NCBI GenBank assembly: GCA_041815005.1
Contig: JBGXYD010000065.1
Span: 1 to 43,189 of the forward strand
DNA length: 43,189 nt
Origin: Leptotrichia sp.
GTDB lineage: Bacteria; Fusobacteriota; Fusobacteriia; Fusobacteriales; Leptotrichiaceae
Direction of reading: 5' to 3'
Shown: piece after piece, positions 3,929-13,394 of the stretch
Layout: each line of letters opens with the position of its first letter
How positions within the stretch are numbered: the stretch's first letter is position 1
Made by a program: the position numbers and the translations under genes
Notes under the pieces: model-generated
The model's input: the letters and a program-made list of their open reading frames with translations, nothing else
Databases searched by the model: none
What the model was told of the DNA's origin: nothing

Positions 3929-5437
3929 TTATTCACTATAAAGTCTATTTAATCCATTAATATAAGCATTTATACTCGCTTCGACAACATCTGTACTCTG
4001 TCCTCTACCAATAAATCTATTTCCGTCTTTTTCAATTATAACAACTACCTGTGCCTGTGCATCAGTATCCCCCGTTATTGCTTCCAGTTTGTATTCTTCC
4101 AGTACGAAAGTATCGTTGAGTGCGAGATTTACCGCATTATAGGCAGCATCTACAGGTCCATCTCCGAGTGCCTCTTTTACAAATGTTTCATCATCTATTG
4201 TTACTGAAACTTCAGCTTTCGGTTTTTTTCCTTCTTTTCTTGAAATTTCAAAGTGTTTCAGGACAATTCTTCCTTCGATTTTTGCCGCATCTCCTGCCAC
4301 TAATGCAATAATATCTTCGTCTAGCACATACTTTTTCTTATCTGCCAGTTTCTTAAACTCTGAAAATAATTCTCCTATACTATTTTCTTCAATATGGTCA
4401 AATCCTAAAGACTGCAGTTTTTGAATAAAGGCATGCTTTCCTGACAATTTACCAAGTACTAGGCTATCAGTATTTCTTCCTACTGATTCAGGACTCATTA
4501 TTTCATAAGTTTCAGGGTTTGCCAACACTCCGTGCTGATGAATACCAGATTCATGAGCAAATGCATTTGCTCCGACTATGGCTTTATTAGGCTGTGTTGA
4601 AACTCCTGTAAGTAGACTTACCAATTTACTTGTTGGATATATTTGTTTTGTATCAATATTTGTGCTATATTCCTCAAATAAATCCTTTCTCGTTTTCAAT
4701 ATCATTACAACTTCTTCTAGTGATGTATTTCCAGCTCTTTCTCCCAATCCGTTTATTGTACATTCTATCTGTGTTGCTCCACCTTGAATAGAGGCAATGG
4801 AGTTGGCAACAGAAAGTCCCAAATCATCATGGCAATGTACAGAAATATCTACATTTTCAATACCTTTTACATTTTCTTTTAAATATTTTATCAATTCATA
4901 CATTTCATTTGGAGTTCTATATCCCACAGTATCAGGAACATTGAGAGTTGTAGCTCCAGCTTTTATAGCCTCTTCATAAACCTGCACTAAAAATTCTTTT
5001 TCTGTACGTGTCGCGTCTTCTGCTGAAAATTCAATATCATCAATAAATGATTTTGCATAAGCTACCATTTCTTTTACCTTATCCAAAATTTGTTCTTTTG
5101 TCATTTTCAATTTATATTCCCTATGTATTGGCGAAGTCGCAATAAATGTATGAATCCTTGGTTTTTTTGCCTTTTCAAGTGCTTTTGCAGCTGTTTCAAT
5201 ATCATTTTTCACCGCTCTTGCAAGACTTGTTACTGTTGAATTTTTAACATTTTCCGCAATTAATTTTACTGCTTCAAAATCTCCCGGAGAAGCCACAGCA
5301 AATCCAGCCTCAATTATATCTACTCCTAAACTTTCCAATTGTTTAGCTATTCTCAATTTTTCCTCCGCATTAAGGTTTACACGTGGTGTCTGTTCTCCGT
5401 CCCTTAATGTCGTATCAAATATCTTTATATATTTCAT
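3929..5437 (-). CDS. leuA: 2-isopropylmalate synthase
   Basis: DTTLRDGEQ, HCHDDLG, GERAGN, HESGIHQ, C-terminal regulatory domain GPVDA. Confidence 0.96.
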   Translation of the reverse strand: MKYIKIFDTTLRDGEQTPRVNLNAEEKLRIAKQLESLGVDIIEAGFAVASPGDFEAVKLIAENVKNSTVTSLARAVKNDIETAAKALEKAKKPRIHTFIATSPIHREYKLKMTKEQILDKVKEMVAYAKSFIDDIEFSAEDATRTEKEFLVQVYEEAIKAGATTLNVPDTVGYRTPNEMYELIKYLKENVKGIENVDISVHCHDDLGLSVANSIASIQGGATQIECTINGLGERAGNTSLEEVVMILKTRKDLFEEYSTNIDTKQIYPTSKLVSLLTGVSTQPNKAIVGANAFAHESGIHQHGVLANPETYEIMSPESVGRNTDSLVLGKLSGKHAFIQKLQSLGFDHIEENSIGELFSEFKKLADKKKYVLDEDIIALVAGDAAKIEGRIVLKHFEISRKEGKKPKAEVSVTIDDETFVKEALGDGPVDAAYNAVNLALNDTFVLEEYKLEAITGDTDAQAQVVVIIEKDGNRFIGRGQSTDVVEASINAYINGLNRLYSE

Positions 5438-5451
5438 AATATCTCCCTTTT

Positions 5452-6144
5452 TTAAGATTTTATTGAATAAATCGCAGCTTGTTCCGCATGAATAACTGCT
5501 GTATCAAATAATGGAATACTAGTATCTTCATGTTTTACAAGCATTCCTATTTCAGTACATCCCAATATTACTCCTTCTGCACCTTTATTTTCAAGTTTTT
5601 TTACAATTTCCAAATATTTTACTTTTGATTCAGGATTTATAATTCCAAGACAAAGTTCTTCATATATTATGTCATTTATAATTTTTATGTCATCTTTATC
5701 TGGAATCATAACATTTATTCCTCTTTCAACAAGCTTTTCTTTATAAAAATTTTGTTCCATAGTATATTTTGTACCGAGTAATGCTATATTTTTAATTTTC
5801 TTTTCCAATATTTTTTCTGCTGTCATTTCCGCAATATGTAAAACTGGAATGGAAATCTTTTCTCCAATTTGACTAATAACTTTGTGCATTGTATTTGTAC
5901 AAATCATAATAAAATCTGCCCCTGCTTTTTCCAAATTATATGCAGCTTCTCCCAAAATTTGTCCACTTTTTTCCCAATTTCCATTTGCCTGACATTCTTC
6001 TATTTCCTGAAAATCTACACTATATAGTACACATTTGGCTGAATGAAGTCCACCTAATCTCTCTTTAATAGTTTCATTTATTATTTTGTAATAGGTTAAT
6101 GTACTTTCCCAGCTCATTCCCCCTATTAATCCTATGACTTTCAT
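5452..6144 (-). CDS. Aspartate/glutamate racemase family protein (YgeA/RacX-like)
   Basis: IGLIGGMSWEST, CTNTMH, LGCTEI motifs. Confidence 0.92.
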   Translation of the reverse strand: MKVIGLIGGMSWESTLTYYKIINETIKERLGGLHSAKCVLYSVDFQEIEECQANGNWEKSGQILGEAAYNLEKAGADFIMICTNTMHKVISQIGEKISIPVLHIAEMTAEKILEKKIKNIALLGTKYTMEQNFYKEKLVERGINVMIPDKDDIKIINDIIYEELCLGIINPESKVKYLEIVKKLENKGAEGVILGCTEIGMLVKHEDTSIPLFDTAVIHAEQAAIYSIKS

Positions 6145-6171
6145 TTATACCACCTTTCAAAAGAAGAACCA

Positions 6172-6737
6172 TTACTCTTTAATAGCTTCAAATCTCAATC
6201 TCACATAATCAGCCAAAATTTGTCCATTTTCATTTTTTCCCAGTTCTTTTTCCACTTTTTCAGTTATTTCATCAATCAGTTTTTCTTGTATTTCTTCTGG
6301 AATATTTACAAGAATAGGTGCAGAAAAAGTTTGCAACCATCCTTTTAATCTGTCTCGGCTACAAAACGTCCACCTTTTTTCAAGGCTCGAGAAACTCCTT
6401 CCATTACTTTCTCTGGATTAGTCATCCAGTGTAGTGCCGCATTGGAAAAAATCGCATCAAATTCATTTTGGAATTTCATATTCTGTGCATCTCCCTGTAC
6501 TGCTTCAATCCCAATTTTCCTTGCTTCCTCAACAAACTTCTGACTTCCATCGAGTCCTAAAACTTTACACCCATATTCAGCAATTTTCTTAGTCAGCACT
6601 CCATCTCCGCAGCCTAAATCCAAGATATACTCATCTTTTTGTGGATTTAACCATTCTATTACTTCTTCTCCATAAGTTGAAACAAAACGTGCATTTTTTT
6701 CATATTTCTCTTTTTCCCAATGCTGGCTCGTGTTCAT
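6172..6737 (-). pseudogene. Class I SAM-dependent methyltransferase, internally deleted and frameshifted
   Basis: N-half (LDLGCGDG, FSNAALHW, GGRFVAE) stops at 6345; C-terminal part LKGWLQTF...ADYVRLRFEAIKE* lies in another frame ending at 6172. Confidence 0.85.
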
Positions 6738-6969: not shown

Positions 6970-7458
6970 CTACATCTTCTCCCCACGGCTCATTGCCACA
7001 ACTCCGGTTTTAGCAATTTCGAGAATTCCATATGGTTTCATTATTTCTACAAATCCCCTAAGCTTTTGGACATCCCCTGTAAGCTCAATAGTTAAAGAGG
7101 TTGGTGATACATCCAACACTTTTCCCCTGTAAATATCTGCAATTTGTACAATCTGGGATCTGGTTTCATTGTCAGACTTTACTTTTATAAGCATAAGTTC
7201 CCTTCTTATTACTCCAGCTTCAGGAAATACTTTTACCTTTACTACATCTACTATTTTATATACCTGTTTTTGAATTTGATCAAGCGACTTATCATCCCCG
7301 TCAACAGTAAGGGTAAGCCTTGCATATCCCGGCTTATTTGTAACCCCTGCTGTCATCTTGTTTACAAAATATCCTCTCCTATTAAACAATGACATTATCC
7401 TCGCCACTATTCCATTGGTATTTTTTGCAATAATTAATATTTCATGCTCCCTATTCAC
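6970..7458 (-). CDS. ilvN: Acetolactate synthase small subunit
   Basis: ACT domain (ARIMSLFNRRGY), RELMLIKV, EIAKTG; true start likely GTG 7458 overlapping the ilvB stop. Confidence 0.93.
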   Translation of the reverse strand: MNREHEILIIAKNTNGIVARIMSLFNRRGYFVNKMTAGVTNKPGYARLTLTVDGDDKSLDQIQKQVYKIVDVVKVKVFPEAGVIRRELMLIKVKSDNETRSQIVQIADIYRGKVLDVSPTSLTIELTGDVQKLRGFVEIMKPYGILEIAKTGVVAMSRGEKM

Positions 7459-9169
7459 TTTCAAGCACCCCTTTCTTTCCAACCATTTGGGAAACACTTG
7501 TCCCTGCAGGTATCATAGGATATACATTTTCTTCCTTTTCCACTATACAATCAATTACAACTCCTTCATCAGATTCTATTAATTTCTTCAAATTTGCACG
7601 TAATTCTTCTTTTGTCTTAATTTTTATCCCTTTTATTCCATAGGCTTCAGAAATTTTTACAAAATCAGGATTATGTGTCAAATCCACAAAGGAGTATCTT
7701 CTATCATTAAACAGCTCCTGCCACTGCCTTACCATTCCTAGGAAAGAATTATTTATAATAATCACCTTTACTGGAAGATTATACTGCTTTATCATCATAA
7801 GCTCCTGAAAGGTCATCTGAAATCCTCCGTCTCCCACGACAAGTACTACCTTCTTGTCAGGCATGGCAACCTGTGCCCCTATTGCTGCCGGAAGTCCAAA
7901 TCCCATTGTTCCTGCTCCTCCTGATGTAATAATGGAATCAGGATTTTCATAGTCAATAAACTGTGCAGTCCACATCTGATGCTGTCCCACATCTGTCACT
8001 ACAATGGCATCTCCCTTCAGAATCTTATTCAGCTCTTCCAAAACCTCCTGTGCTACTAGACTGTCATCTCCAACTTTAGGATATCCTAAAGGATATTCTT
8101 CTTTCCAGCCTGTCACCTTAGAAATCCATTCTGTATTCTCTTTGGCTTCCACTTCCTTATTTAGCCCTTCCAGAACATTTTTCAAATCCCCTACTATTGG
8201 CACATCTGCCTTTTTATTCTTATCTATTTCAGCAGGGTCTATATCTATATGAATTATTTTAGCCCTTTTGCAGAATTTATTCGGATCCCCCGTAATTCTA
8301 TCGTCAAACCTTATTCCCGTGGCTATTATGAGATCAGCCTCATCTGTAGCATAGTTTGCCGCTACCGTTCCATGCATACCTAACATTCCGAGTGACAGTT
8401 TATTCGAGCTTGGAAAAGCCCCTAAACCAAGTAAGGTAGTAGTTACAGGGCTATTTATCTTTTCAGCAAATTCCTTCAGCTCCTTTGAGGCTTTCGCCTT
8501 TAGAATTCCTGCCCCTGCAATAATAAGAGGTTTTTTTGAATCCTGTATAAGCTTTAAAGCTTTTTTTATCTGTCCTTGATGTCCTTTGTATGTAGGATCA
8601 TATCCTTCCAGATGAAAGTCCTTGTTATACAGCTTATTAAATTCATCATAGGTAATTTCCTGTAACTGAATATCCTTAGGAATATCTATGAGTACAGGAC
8701 CAGGTCTCCCTGTAGAAGCTATATAGTATGCTTCCTTAATTATTCTAGGAAGCTCTTTTATATTCTGAACAAGATAGTTCATCTTTGTTATGGGCACTGT
8801 TATTCCCACAATATCACTTTCCTGAAAGGCATCCTTTCCCAGTAGTGAACTCCCCACTTGACCTGTAATTGCAAGCATCGGTATAGAATCCATATGAGCC
8901 GTCATTATCCCCGTAACAAGGTTTGTGGCACCTGGCCCTGATGTGGCAAGACACACACCAACCTTTCCTGATGCCCTCGCATATCCGTCTGCTTCATGGG
9001 CTGCTCCCTGCTCATGCCTTGAAAAATAATGATTTATCTTTTCATATTTATAAATTTCATCATAAATAGGTATTACCGCCCCTCCAGGATAGCCGAAAAT
9101 ATCTTCTATTCCAAGTCTATGCAGACATTCCAATAAGATTCTTGCCCCATTTATCATTTCCGTACTCAT
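7451..9169 (-). CDS. ilvB: Acetolactate synthase large subunit, biosynthetic type
   Basis: GYPGGA, RHEQGA, TSGPGATN, DVGQHQM, GDGGFQM ThDP motif; ATG 9169 after AGGTGG. Confidence 0.96.
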   Translation of the reverse strand: MSTEMINGARILLECLHRLGIEDIFGYPGGAVIPIYDEIYKYEKINHYFSRHEQGAAHEADGYARASGKVGVCLATSGPGATNLVTGIMTAHMDSIPMLAITGQVGSSLLGKDAFQESDIVGITVPITKMNYLVQNIKELPRIIKEAYYIASTGRPGPVLIDIPKDIQLQEITYDEFNKLYNKDFHLEGYDPTYKGHQGQIKKALKLIQDSKKPLIIAGAGILKAKASKELKEFAEKINSPVTTTLLGLGAFPSSNKLSLGMLGMHGTVAANYATDEADLIIATGIRFDDRITGDPNKFCKRAKIIHIDIDPAEIDKNKKADVPIVGDLKNVLEGLNKEVEAKENTEWISKVTGWKEEYPLGYPKVGDDSLVAQEVLEELNKILKGDAIVVTDVGQHQMWTAQFIDYENPDSIITSGGAGTMGFGLPAAIGAQVAMPDKKVVLVVGDGGFQMTFQELMMIKQYNLPVKVIIINNSFLGMVRQWQELFNDRRYSFVDLTHNPDFVKISEAYGIKGIKIKTKEELRANLKKLIESDEGVVIDCIVEKEENVYPMIPAGTSVSQMVGKKGVLESE

Positions 9170-9196
9170 CTTTTTACCACCTTTCACTTATTTTTT

Positions 9197-10420
9197 TTAC
9201 TCTCCTGTTATCTCCTGTGAATTTAACCTCTTTATCTCATAACCTTCCTTTTTAAAACTTTCTATTATTTTTTTTATATGCTCTTCTCCATTGGTTTCCA
9301 CAGTAACCTGAAGTTCCACCTCATGAAATCTGTCAAGATTCTTGAACTGATTATGTTCAAGTCTTATTACATTGGCATTTTCATCTGACAGTATCCGGGA
9401 AACAGCCACCAGTTGCCCTGGCTTGTCAGGAAGATCTACTGAAAACTTAAATATCCTTCCCCTAACAACAAGCCCTTTATTAATCATTGAGGATATTGTT
9501 AAAACGTCTATATTCCCTCCACTTAAGATGGAAATTATCTTTTTACCCTTTACATTCAGTTTTTTCAACCCTGCTACAGATAAAATTCCTGCATTTTCCG
9601 CTACGATTTTATGTTTTTCCACAAGAAGGAGAAAGGACTCCATTAATTCGTAATCTGAAACTGTTATAATCTCGTCAACATAGTTTTTTATATAGTCAAA
9701 GTCTATATCTCCTATTTTTTTTACAGCTGCTCCGTCTGCAATTGTACTTACTTCCTTGAGTTCCGTCACTTCCCCCAACTCAAGGGATTTCATGGCACTA
9801 GCAGCCCCTTCAGGTTCCACTCCGATAATCTTTATTTGGGGATTTTTTAGTTTAGCAGCAGCAGCCACCCCTGAAATAAGTCCACCGCCACCAAGGGGAA
9901 CCATAATTATGTCTGCATCAGGTATTTCCTCCATTACTTCCAATGCTATTGTCCCTTGCCCCTCTATGACATCTACATCATTAAAGGGATGAATAAACAC
10001 GTATCCTTCTTTTTCCTGTAGTTCTAATGCCTTCTGATACGCCTCGTCATAGACTTCCCCATGGAGAATAACCTCTGCACCATACTGTCTTGTAGCTTCT
10101 ACCTTTATAAGGGGGGTATGTCTTGGCATTACTATGACTGCCTTAATTCCCAGTTTTTGGGCTGCAAGAGCGACCCCCTGGGCATGGTTTCCAGCAGAAG
10201 AAGCAATTACCCCTCTGTTTTTTTCCTCCTTCGTAAGCTTTGCTATCTTGTTATAAGCCCCCCTTAGCTTAAAGGATCCTGTTCTTTGGAGATTTTCAGG
10301 TTTTATATATACCTGATTACCTGTTTCCTTTGAAAATACACTGCTATGAATCAGCTTTGTCTTTACGATTACTGTTCCCAGCCTTTCCCTTGCTTCCATA
10401 AAATCATATAACTTATGCAA
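9197..10420 (-). CDS. ilvA: Threonine ammonia-lyase with single C-terminal ACT domain
   Basis: KPENLQRTGSFKLRG PLP-lysine motif, SAGNHAQG, GGGGLISG; probable TTG start at 10420 after AGGTGG (track start 10429). Confidence 0.93.
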   Translation of the reverse strand: MHKLYDFMEARERLGTVIVKTKLIHSSVFSKETGNQVYIKPENLQRTGSFKLRGAYNKIAKLTKEEKNRGVIASSAGNHAQGVALAAQKLGIKAVIVMPRHTPLIKVEATRQYGAEVILHGEVYDEAYQKALELQEKEGYVFIHPFNDVDVIEGQGTIALEVMEEIPDADIIMVPLGGGGLISGVAAAAKLKNPQIKIIGVEPEGAASAMKSLELGEVTELKEVSTIADGAAVKKIGDIDFDYIKNYVDEIITVSDYELMESFLLLVEKHKIVAENAGILSVAGLKKLNVKGKKIISILSGGNIDVLTISSMINKGLVVRGRIFKFSVDLPDKPGQLVAVSRILSDENANVIRLEHNQFKNLDRFHEVELQVTVETNGEEHIKKIIESFKKEGYEIKRLNSQEITGE

Positions 10421-10576
10421 TTTTTCCACCTTCTTCTATTATTTTATCATTTATAATTTTTATTCTATTCCAATACGGTGTCAGCCCTCTTTTTTCAGTT
10501 CTGTTATTTTTTCTGTTCCAGCCTACTTTAAAGTCTACATTTTTAAATCTAGATTTTTTTCTTTGGGTATTTTTAT

Positions 10577-12241
10577 TTAGTCCAGTATCTCAATTGCCCC
10601 TTCGGCAGCTGATGACACATGCATCGCATACTTTTTCAAATATCCTCCAACTGTTATTTTATAAGGTTCCAACTTTAATTTTCTTTCTGCAATTTCCTCA
10701 TCTGAAAGTTTTACATTCAGTTTTCTCTCTGGAATATTTATCTCTATAATATCCCCATCCTGAACTATAGCTATCGTTCCACCCGCAGCAGCTTCAGGGG
10801 ATACATGTCCTATGGAAGCCCCTCTCGTTGCGCCTGAAAATCTTCCATCTGTTATAAGGGCTACGTCTTTATCCAGCCCCATTCCTGCAATCATGGCAGT
10901 CGGAGATAGCATTTCCCTCATTCCGGGTCCTCCTTTAGGTCCTTCATATCTTATTACTACCACATCTCCAGCCTTAATTTTTCCACCAACTATAGCTTCC
11001 ACAGCATCCTCTTCGTTGTCAAATACCTTTGCAGGTCCCGAATGCACAAGCATTTCTTTGGCAACTGCCCCTTCCTTTACTACACAGCCGTCCTGTGCAA
11101 GATTTCCCTTCAGTACAGCAATCCCCCCCGTGATATACGCAGGATTATCCCAAGTCCTTATAACATCATCATCGTTTATATAAGCATCCTTTACAAGCTC
11201 TGCCTGCGTCTGAAGGGCAACAGTCTTGGCATCTCCATTAAGCCTCCCGTTCTCATACATTCTCTTCATTACTCCTGTTACCCCACCTGCCCTGTACAAA
11301 TCCTCTATAAAGTATTCCCCTGAAGGAGAAAGTTTACATAGCTGAGGTGTTGTCCTTGCTATATCATTAAAATCATCCAAAGTAAGTTTTATACCGGCTT
11401 CATGGGCTATTGCAGGAAGATGTAATGCCGTATTTGATGATCCCCCAAGTGCCATATCCACAGCAACAGCATTTTCAAAGGCTTCCTTTGTCATAATATC
11501 CTTTGGTTTTAAGTCTGCCTTTAAAACTTCCATTATTTGCATTCCTGCTTTTTTAGCAAGCCTTAATCTTTCAGAAAACACAGCAGGAACCGTTCCATTT
11601 CCAGGAAGCCCCATTCCTAGTGCCTCTGTCAGGCAATTCATAGTATTTGCCGTATACATTCCTGAACATGATCCACAAGTAGGACAGGCAAGGTCCTCCA
11701 CCATATTCAATTCCTTTTTAGTTATGAGCCCTGAGTTATATTGCCCAACAGCCTCAAATACATTACTTAAACCAACCTTCTTTCCCTTATAGACTCCAGC
11801 CAGCATTGCCCCTCCACTTATAAATATCGAAGGAATATTCAGCCTCGCTGCTGCTATAAGCATCCCCGGTACCACCTTATCACAGTTTGGAATAAATACT
11901 ATGGCGTCAAACGGTGTCGCCATTGCAGTAGCCTCTATGGAATCAGCTATAATATTTCTTGTCACTAGGGAATACTTCATTCCCAGATGGTTCATGGCAA
12001 GCCCGTCACATATTCCAATTGTATTGAACTCCATAGGAACTCCTCCGGCATTTCTTATACCGTCCTTTACCGACTGTACCAAAGTCTGCAGATGTACATG
12101 TCCCGGTATTATTTCATTATAGGAATTGGCAATCCCGATAATCGGTCTGTCCATTTCCTCGTTTACAAACCCCAGTCCTTTCAATAGTGATCTATGGGGT
12201 GCCCTTGCTGCCCCTTTTGTTAAATTGTTACTTCTTGACAT
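10577..12241 (-). CDS. ilvD: Dihydroxy-acid dehydratase
   Basis: [38 protein letters not shown]; ATG 12241 after AGGAG. Confidence 0.97.
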
Positions 12242-12272: not shown

Positions 12273-12306
12273 AAAATTAAAAGGCGACTCCTTACTCGAA
12301 TCGCCT
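12273..12306 (-). terminator. Intrinsic terminator (attenuator) in the ilvD leader
   Basis: mRNA AGGCGAUUC-GAGUAAG-GAGUCGCCU followed by UUUAAUUUU; 9-bp stem about 30 nt upstream of the ilvD start. Confidence 0.85.
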
Positions 12307-12396
12307 CAAAAGTCTATATCAGATTTTTATTTCCAAGAAATGGTTAAAACTTATCCAGCTTAAACCTATTAAATTTTGCCAGGTTAAAATATCAGA

Positions 12397-12546
12397 TTAA
12401 TAGTAGTCGTTTCTTCTTTCTTTTACCGTTGGCATCATAAAATCATTCTTAGAAACTTTTAAGGCAGAAAATTTTAATTCCTTCACCAAAAGGACTTCAA
12501 GAACTTCTATAATGAGCAGTAATATGACTAATATTAACAATAACAT
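12397..12546 (-). CDS. Leu/Ile/Val-rich leader peptide of the ilv operon (49 aa)
   Basis: AGGAGG SD, ATG 12546, MLLLILVILLLIIEVLEVLLVKELKFSALKVSKNDFMMPTVKERRNDYY*; codons 2-13 are all L/I/V. Confidence 0.82.
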   Translation of the reverse strand: MLLLILVILLLIIEVLEVLLVKELKFSALKVSKNDFMMPTVKERRNDYY

Positions 12547-12583
12547 TTTTCCTCCTAAATTTAACTTAATCTATTATATAATT

Positions 12584-12612
12584 ATTTTATCAAAAATAAC
12601 CATTAATGTAAA
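12584..12612 (-). promoter_or_regulatory. Putative sigma70 promoter of the ilv leader
   Basis: TTTACA - 17 nt - TAAAAT with TGn extension; AT-rich context lowers specificity. Confidence 0.55.
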
Positions 12613-12822: not shown

Positions 12823-13374
12823 CTAACTTTGTTCCACATTCATGACAGAATTTTCCTCCATAGAATTAAATGCTGATATTTTCCCGCTTACTCCTGATGA
12901 AGATGTCATTGCATTAATTTTTTGTGCAGACTTAGCCATTTTTATTTTTGATTTTATTTCATTTTTTCTAGTATTGAGTTTTTGTATATCTGATGTAAGT
13001 TTATCATGCATTTCCCTCATTTTTAAAGAATTCTGAACTGTAATCACTTTTTCATTTTCCAATGATTGCAACCTTATTTTTAAAGATTCCTTCTTTTCAA
13101 GGAACATTCTTGCATCAGCTTCGTTTCCCGCCTGAAGAGCCTTTCTCACATAATTTTCCATTTTTTTCATTTCCTCTTCACATTCAGAAACTTTTCTTTT
13201 AACTGCACTTTCCTGTGCCATCACAGCAACTGTTTCAGCTTTTACACTTCCTAGATCCTTTTCCATATCCCTCAAATATTGGTCTATCATTTTTTCAGGA
13301 TCTTCCATCTTATCCAATAATGCATTGATATTGGATGACATTATCGTTTTAAACCTTTCTAAAATACCTGCCAT
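12823..13374 (-). CDS. pspA: PspA/IM30 family protein, probably C-terminally truncated
   Basis: GILERFKTIMSSNINALLDKMEDPEKMIDQYLRDM coiled-coil; ends shortly after AFNSMEE; SD AGGAGG. Confidence 0.85.
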   Translation of the reverse strand: MAGILERFKTIMSSNINALLDKMEDPEKMIDQYLRDMEKDLGSVKAETVAVMAQESAVKRKVSECEEEMKKMENYVRKALQAGNEADARMFLEKKESLKIRLQSLENEKVITVQNSLKMREMHDKLTSDIQKLNTRKNEIKSKIKMAKSAQKINAMTSSSGVSGKISAFNSMEENSVMNVEQS

Positions 13375-13394
13375 TTTCAATTCCTCCTATAATT

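Follow-up and report, generated by a model that had tools for sequence, protein, structure and literature searches.

The leader peptides ilvL and ivbL are about 32 aa long. Attenuators named for enterobacteria are those of ilvGMEDA, ilvBN and leu, in the described model of which polymerase and ribosome are kept in step by a pause that follows region II (PMC1183508). Upstream of ilvD, Listeria monocytogenes carries Rli60, a tested leader attenuator with a 13-aa peptide (PMC5864092), and Staphylococcus aureus a leucine-rich attenuator peptide of 26 aa that is supported by mutants (PMC5794164). Since both organisms possess such ilvD leaders, the kind of system is already known, and the contrast drawn in an earlier note on this DNA, which set leader-peptide attenuation against the T-boxes and CodY of Firmicutes, does not hold. 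Another ilvD leader, the motif WRC-18-2, is described as a structured leader with a terminator and a weak riboswitch candidate, reported from Veillonella only; one F. nucleatum genome was included in that survey, and its supplement makes no mention of ilvD (PMC8632094). Elsewhere, the sections consulted mention Fusobacteria only as too sparsely sampled (PMC4833913). Our search of the literature outside subscription journals yielded no description of such a leader in Fusobacteriota; RNA-mapping papers on Fusobacterium and their supplements could already list it. The attenuator survey of Lopatovskaya et al. from 2010 reportedly predicted none in Fusobacteria.

The window studied here, i.e., the whole analysed stretch of 43,189 nt of Leptotrichia sp. 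DNA, contains an ilvD-ilvA-ilvB-ilvN operon. Directly observable upstream of ilvD are a promoter-like site, a Shine-Dalgarno (SD) sequence, an ORF rich in Leu, Ile and Val (L/I/V) codons, overlapping complementarities for an antiterminator and a terminator, and the conservation of this arrangement before ilvD (Table 1). Together with the predicted RNA structures, these features very probably represent a ribosome-dependent transcription attenuator of the operon, which would be off by default and switched on by a shortage of charged Leu, Ile or Val tRNA. This mechanism, predicted as it is, had already been proposed in the earlier note and is the best-supported reading, as the upstream ORF (uORF) is conserved, linked to ilvD and devoid of a microprotein signature. 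The system resembles the ilvL/Rli60 kind and, by its testable features, is best read as a member of it.

Table 1. Features of the ilvD leader and the downstream operon, in the order of transcription.
Feature	Coordinates	Strand	Remark
Predicted sigma-70 promoter (-35, 17 nt spacer, extended -10)	12584..12612	-	10/12 consensus matches, TG present
SD sequence AGGAGG of leader ORF	12551..12556	-	Present in 36/37 family leaders; the remaining one is cut by a contig end
Leader ORF, 49 codons	12397..12546	-	46-56 aa in 36/37 own-family genomes
Control codons 2-21, 18 Leu/Ile/Val	12484..12543	-	Same stretch is the predicted protector 5' strand
Outer protector helix, 5' strand, codons 9-10	12517..12522	-	Predicted pairing with 12428-12423
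Antiterminator 5' strand, codons 28-31	12454..12465	-	Predicted to sit inside the protector too
Second antiterminator segment, 5' strand, codons 32-34	12446..12453	-	Predicted partner 12339-12332
Outer protector helix, 3' strand, codons 40-42, invariant GT	12423..12428	-	Predicted
Second antiterminator segment, 3' strand	12332..12339	-	Predicted; extends the antiterminator of the window
Antiterminator 3' strand	12303..12314	-	Overlaps terminator 5' arm by 4 nt
Intrinsic terminator, 9-10 bp stem and U-rich tail	12273..12306	-	Predicted; covarying stem
ilvD, dihydroxy-acid dehydratase	10577..12241	-	TIGR00110 above cut-off
ilvA, threonine ammonia-lyase	9197..10429	-	TIGR01127 above cut-off; longest-ORF coordinates
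ilvB, acetolactate synthase large subunit	7451..9187	-	TIGR00118 above cut-off; longest-ORF coordinates
ilvN, acetolactate synthase small subunit	6970..7497	-	TIGR00119 above cut-off; longest-ORF coordinates

Like Rli60, the Leptotrichia leader precedes ilvD and combines an ORF rich in branched-chain amino acid (BCAA) codons with alternative terminator and antiterminator structures, and the super-attenuation observed in start-codon mutants of Rli60 is predicted for it as well (PMC5864092). The two differ, however, in that the short Rli60 peptide of 13 aa is followed by structures located downstream of it and the system is layered under CodY (PMC5864092), whereas the leaders of the family studied here measure 46-56 aa, contain the antiterminator strand within the ORF and occur in an order where CodY was found in 0/41 genomes. 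The S. aureus leader shares the position before ilvD, the conserved Ile/Leu codons and the terminator, but has 26 aa with approximately eight control codons, is CodY-dependent, and its predicted antiterminator targets the U tail instead of the terminator 5' arm (PMC5794164). With the enterobacterial attenuators (PMC1183508) the locus has in common the mixed L/I/V control codons and the four-segment logic of protector (I:II), antiterminator (II:III) and terminator (III:IV); in contrast to them, the ORF of most family leaders runs on for 60-83 nt from the start of segment II, the antiterminator strand, to its stop, the terminator is 117-178 nt away, and no pause site came to light. The form found in genus g15 of the sister family, where the stop lies on or just after segment II, comes close to the classic attenuator. 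WRC-18-2, set beside the Leptotrichia leader by its description, is likewise a structured leader with a terminator before ilvD, but no uORF is mentioned in the part of the report consulted (PMC8632094). What is new here is the phylum and the geometry, namely a frame of 46-56 codons kept open without sequence selection and the gap of 115-180 nt to the terminator.

All four genes assigned to the operon in the earlier note exceed their respective NCBIfam cut-offs. They are followed, 3' of ilvN, by a methyltransferase fragment, a racemase and leuA. The former two (window positions 3929-6737, reverse strand) comprise a short methyltransferase ORF of 130 aa, beyond whose stop the sequence looks like a possible continuation of the gene, and an amino-acid racemase; in several relatives leuA follows soon after ilvN without either of them. 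Of the 36 family leaders with enough sequence, 32 have a promoter site like that of the window, placed 32-68 nt ahead of the uORF. Further upstream, a PspA-like gene (12823-13380, reverse strand; 185 aa) is shorter than the family models and scores below their cut-off, and is followed at 12805-12762 by what appears by eye to be a long-looped hairpin of 9 bp with a U tail, which may insulate the ilv promoter.

The coordinates given in the earlier note for the SD sequence, the 49-codon ORF, the helix and the terminator were all correct on re-checking, and the claimed richness in control codons was borne out as well. An SD-led, translatable leader ORF precedes the biosynthetic operon, and its control codons are cognate to the operon products: every one of codons 2-13 and 18 of codons 2-21 encode Leu, Ile or Val. 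With 14 such codons among codons 2-16, it surpasses all others in a genome-wide set of 258 intergenic SD-ATG ORFs 12-70 aa long (the runner-up has 12) and lies above all 1238 transmembrane-like windows taken from proteins of the same genome (maximum 13). GTC accounts for 69% of the Val codons in the leaders vs 8% genome-wide; this excess is mostly due to one inherited position, and pairing may be its cause.

An intrinsic terminator is predicted before the first gene of the operon. Its 9-bp stem (12306-12298 : 12290-12282) is followed by an interrupted U tail ending at 12273, and the ilvD start at 12241 lies approximately 30 nt further on. The 12-bp alternative helix proposed in the earlier note to overlap the terminator 5' arm, and thus a mutually exclusive antiterminator, was recovered with standard pairs at 12/12 positions, of which two are G-U; the duplex has a predicted energy of -17.8 kcal/mol (z -3.4 vs 100 shuffles), and the whole leader folds with z -3.2. 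Covariation, which the earlier note had suggested looking for in both helices, was found in the terminator and not in the antiterminator, which is conserved instead. In the 31 aligned family leaders used for the helix tests (g7 and g11 were set apart), 99.7% of cells in the terminator are paired, three of its pairs are changed on both sides, and its covariation exceeds that of 500/500 shuffles. The antiterminator is paired in 87.5% of cells, as compared with 23-70% for slid controls, but within the family its sequence hardly varies: a single pair is compensated, and covariation is not beyond shuffles (217 of 500). Measured as a duplex, it reaches p<=0.05 vs shuffles in 32/37 family leaders.

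Better evidence for the antiterminator than covariation within the family is its apparent rebuilding across lineages. The g11 leader joins codons 24-32 with the arm of its own terminator through an unrelated helix of at least 17 pairs, and in g20 and g26 antiterminators appear rebuilt from other unrelated sequences. When leaders and targets were cross-matched, the cognate leader was best for 6/15 targets; with the whole terminator arm, a longer target chosen after the first result, the cognate was best for 8/16, where about one is expected by chance. Five of these eight matches fall in one sequence group, and g7, g23/29, g25 and G070 failed. Terminators of G070, G042 and G131 were set by hand, the automatic picks being wrong (G070) or the second of two hairpins (G042, G131). 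No clear antiterminator was found in g7 and G070, and in g15 the duplex is short and reaches p<=0.05 in 0/14 leaders, with the antiterminator predicted to form in about half of them (mean P 0.47). Among the individual loci, two of genus g7 (L008, L009) have an L/I/V-rich leader and a terminator without a convincing antiterminator. Three loci of g23 and g29 (L155, L160, L165) carry two tandem terminators directly 3' of the leader stop and upstream of ilvD, the similar 5' arms of which both match one 7-nt strand within the leader ORF. At several loci of g2, g7, g13 and g14 (e.g., L018, L003, L020) the terminator lies 80-320 nt from ilvD, and some of these gaps contain, by eye, a promoter-like stretch, possibly a second, unattenuated promoter.

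In the earlier note, stalling at the control codons was thought to leave the antiterminator free and full translation to melt it. Predicted folding agrees with the first part. For 47 distinct leaders, transcripts ending in the terminator loop were folded with the ribosome at different positions, and a helix was counted as formed at P>0.5: the antiterminator formed in 10/47 leaders without a ribosome, in 39/47 and 38/47 with the ribosome at codons 6 and 12, respectively, and in 27/47 with the ribosome at codon 18. The second part is insufficient. In the window, 66 nt separate the start of the antiterminator strand from the leader stop downstream of it; a ribosome that has reached the stop therefore leaves this strand uncovered, and at equilibrium the antiterminator forms again (P 0.92 in the window; 21/47 leaders). 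For this reason a protector hairpin is needed, an element missed in the earlier note, and it is predicted to pair codons ~9-21 with codons 28-42. As RNAalifold misaligns the control codons in the family alignment, protector pairs were scored sequence by sequence. At least seven of the nine pairs of the outer helix are present in 27/31 leaders (a best-of search with no null); in g13 two pairs are compensated, and four g1 genomes carry a C-C mismatch. With the ribosome at the stop and 15 nt more of RNA, the 3' half of the antiterminator strand is predicted to be sequestered in 25/32 long leaders, and the invariant GT at codon ~41 to be paired in 28/32. Sequestration of the antiterminator strand exceeds that in synonymous shuffles in 36/44 leaders. 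The protector is thus predicted in most leaders, yet the region as a whole is no stabler than synonymous shuffles (above them in 19/44, p<=0.05 in 2). In the full-length RNA of the window the terminator prevails (P 0.74-1.0) wherever the ribosome is placed; since the finished terminator wins at equilibrium in every case, the switch would have to be kinetic.

These foldings suggest the following course of events. With no ribosome on the leader, or behind one that has already passed through, the leader ORF would fold into the long protector hairpin, which would hide the antiterminator strand, let the terminator form and keep the operon off by default. A ribosome stalled within codons 2-21 would cover the protector 5' strand and free codons 28-34, which could then pair, approximately 140 nt downstream, with the nascent terminator 5' arm, so that RNA polymerase would continue into ilvD. 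If translation is fast, or does not occur, the protector would close first, and the choice between the structures would be a kinetic one. We infer that an open frame of about 50 codons serves to make the ribosome traverse all antiterminator segments and clear the protector 3' strand before the stop.

The conservation of the uORF before ilvD, which the earlier note had proposed to examine by alignment, is evident in much of the order and does not extend to the outgroup loci examined. An ilvD-like match is present in 112/187 genomes of the order, and 81 upstream regions were examined. These cover the own family (37 genomes) and genus g15 (14) completely, as well as the four genomes from three small families; the rest of the sister family is represented by 26 of its 57 genomes with a match. 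An L/I/V-rich uORF precedes ilvD at 37/37 own-family loci, with 11-14 L/I/V among codons 2-16 and a length of 46-56 aa in 36 and 30 aa in one, and at 14/14 g15 loci (10-13 L/I/V, 25-46 aa). Among the other sister-family loci, 10/26 have an SD-led uORF (at least 8 L/I/V) followed by a terminator, and no such uORF was detected at the four small-family loci. All of the 15 named Fusobacteriales ilvD loci carry the uORF; where these have enough flanking DNA, the gene order is ilvD-ilvA-ilvB-ilvN, often with leuA or ilvC next. By comparison, 0/62 ilvD loci of outgroups from other phyla reach 8 L/I/V. As the genomes are kin, these counts overstate independence. The only short leader of the family, L143 (30 aa), has its stop on the antiterminator strand, a geometry as in g15; its genome (G173) is 74% complete, and the leader may therefore be an assembly variant. 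At L026 (G028), a locus without the uORF, the AT-rich intergenic region upstream of ilvD contains a G+C-rich stretch that has no Rfam match at cut-off.

Selection on the leader appears to act on nucleotides and length and not on the peptide. Third positions of codons 2-13 differ by 0.055 per site, whereas those of ilvD in the same 89 close pairs differ by 0.298, from which it follows that the nucleotides themselves are constrained here. In codons 37-49, replacements outnumber synonymous single changes (258 vs 71; 156 vs 1871 in ilvD), which points to no such constraint on the amino acids. This lack of selection at the protein level argues against the 49-aa product being a functional membrane microprotein, whose place before ilvD would be incidental or secondary. 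Such a protein would agree with the hydrophobic N-terminal run of 12-20 residues, the length kept within 46-56 aa in 36/37 family genomes and the few homologues called as hypothetical proteins. The run, however, is almost free of Phe, Ala, Gly and Met, is interspersed with Glu, Gln or Asn, and draws 96% of its hydrophobic residues in codons 2-16 from L/I/V (36 distinct leaders), as opposed to 63% in transmembrane-like windows; it is thus not the mixed-composition segment under protein-level selection of a single-pass membrane microprotein. Moreover, the g15 forms vary from 25 to 46 aa. Nor is the ORF conserved apart from the ilv genes, an outcome that in the earlier note would have spoken against attenuation: a short pattern for the mid-leader motif, run against 52 family genomes, hit the ilvD leader in 26 of them, a single time each; the only other hits, two in number, carry 2 mismatches, and one of these comes from the 15 family genomes in which no ilvD was detected. 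We therefore regard a microprotein as very unlikely.

A frame of about 50 residues could also reflect an attenuator with a second input, in which the hydrophobic N-terminus leaves the tunnel and engages SRP or the translocon, resulting in membrane targeting or in an arrest modelled on the SecM and MifM families. At roughly this length the first 10-15 residues would emerge from the ribosome, and in shuffles of each of the 14 long leaders tested, the frame stays open by chance with P 0.07-0.26. We nevertheless consider such an input highly improbable, because a conserved C-terminal arrest motif is missing, short forms exist in g15 and G173, and the RNA geometry can account for the length. Similarly, the strong nucleotide-level conservation along the leader and the failure of equilibrium folding alone to give a clean switch would suit a terminator controlled by a protein or by a small-molecule-binding RNA fold, with the ORF not acting as sensor. 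Against such control speak the conserved SD and start, the length differences in the control region, which amount to whole codons, and the L/I/V bias, which persists in genera with unrelated RNA sequence; in addition, Rfam at cut-off matched nothing on the leader or on the loci of six relatives. Control of this type has scarcely any likelihood in our view. Known regulators were looked for individually and not found: the T-box riboswitch (RF00230) had no match in the leader, the only T-box-like match of the genome being on another contig, and the CodY domain PF06018 was found in 0/41 genomes of the order with positive controls, the own genome being 86% complete. A search for plasmid sequences returned weak, AT-rich partial matches to Clostridium only, which were dismissed as chance.

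Other candidate leaders were noticed in the same genome (G000). On contig C131 (2528-2566, forward strand; L180), an SD-led ORF of 12 codons, three of them Trp, lies approximately 260 nt before a gene that is trpE-like by a sequence motif, and is followed by hairpins with U tracts. This is likely a second leader-peptide attenuator, and a Trp-rich leader before trpE suggests that attenuation is a general habit of the group. On contig C45 (11493-11721, reverse strand; L179), a T-box-like RNA, which falls short of the Rfam cut-off with 61 of 93 bits (E 5e-13), precedes an ORF that resembles, by eye, a glutamine-hydrolysing asparagine synthetase.

For ribosome-dependent attenuation of ilvD, the long leader makes it testable how a ribosome uncoupled from RNA polymerase could decide on termination. 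Fusobacteria are classed, at the phylum level, as runaway transcribers (PMC13323073). In scans of this genome alone, run with no control genome, terminators lie at most 12 nt from a stop in 25/158 cases (16%; crude scan) or in 22-23% of 95-192 (second scan), and the median distance from stop to terminator is 29-45 nt. The frame of the leader seems to be selected for its length rather than its product, although shared ancestry weakens this conclusion. It is conceivable, if still rather doubtful, that the ORF is selected for length and not for sequence, that the ribosome serves as a timed helicase running through a protector of approximately 100 nt, and that the gap of 115-180 nt acts as a clock in place of pause-and-couple synchronisation. 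If so, the order, which contains both short- and long-leader forms, would offer a natural test case for sensing by the ribosome without coupling. The ilvD leader would extend ribosome-dependent amino-acid attenuation to the Fusobacteriales, an order in which CodY was not found (0/41 genomes).
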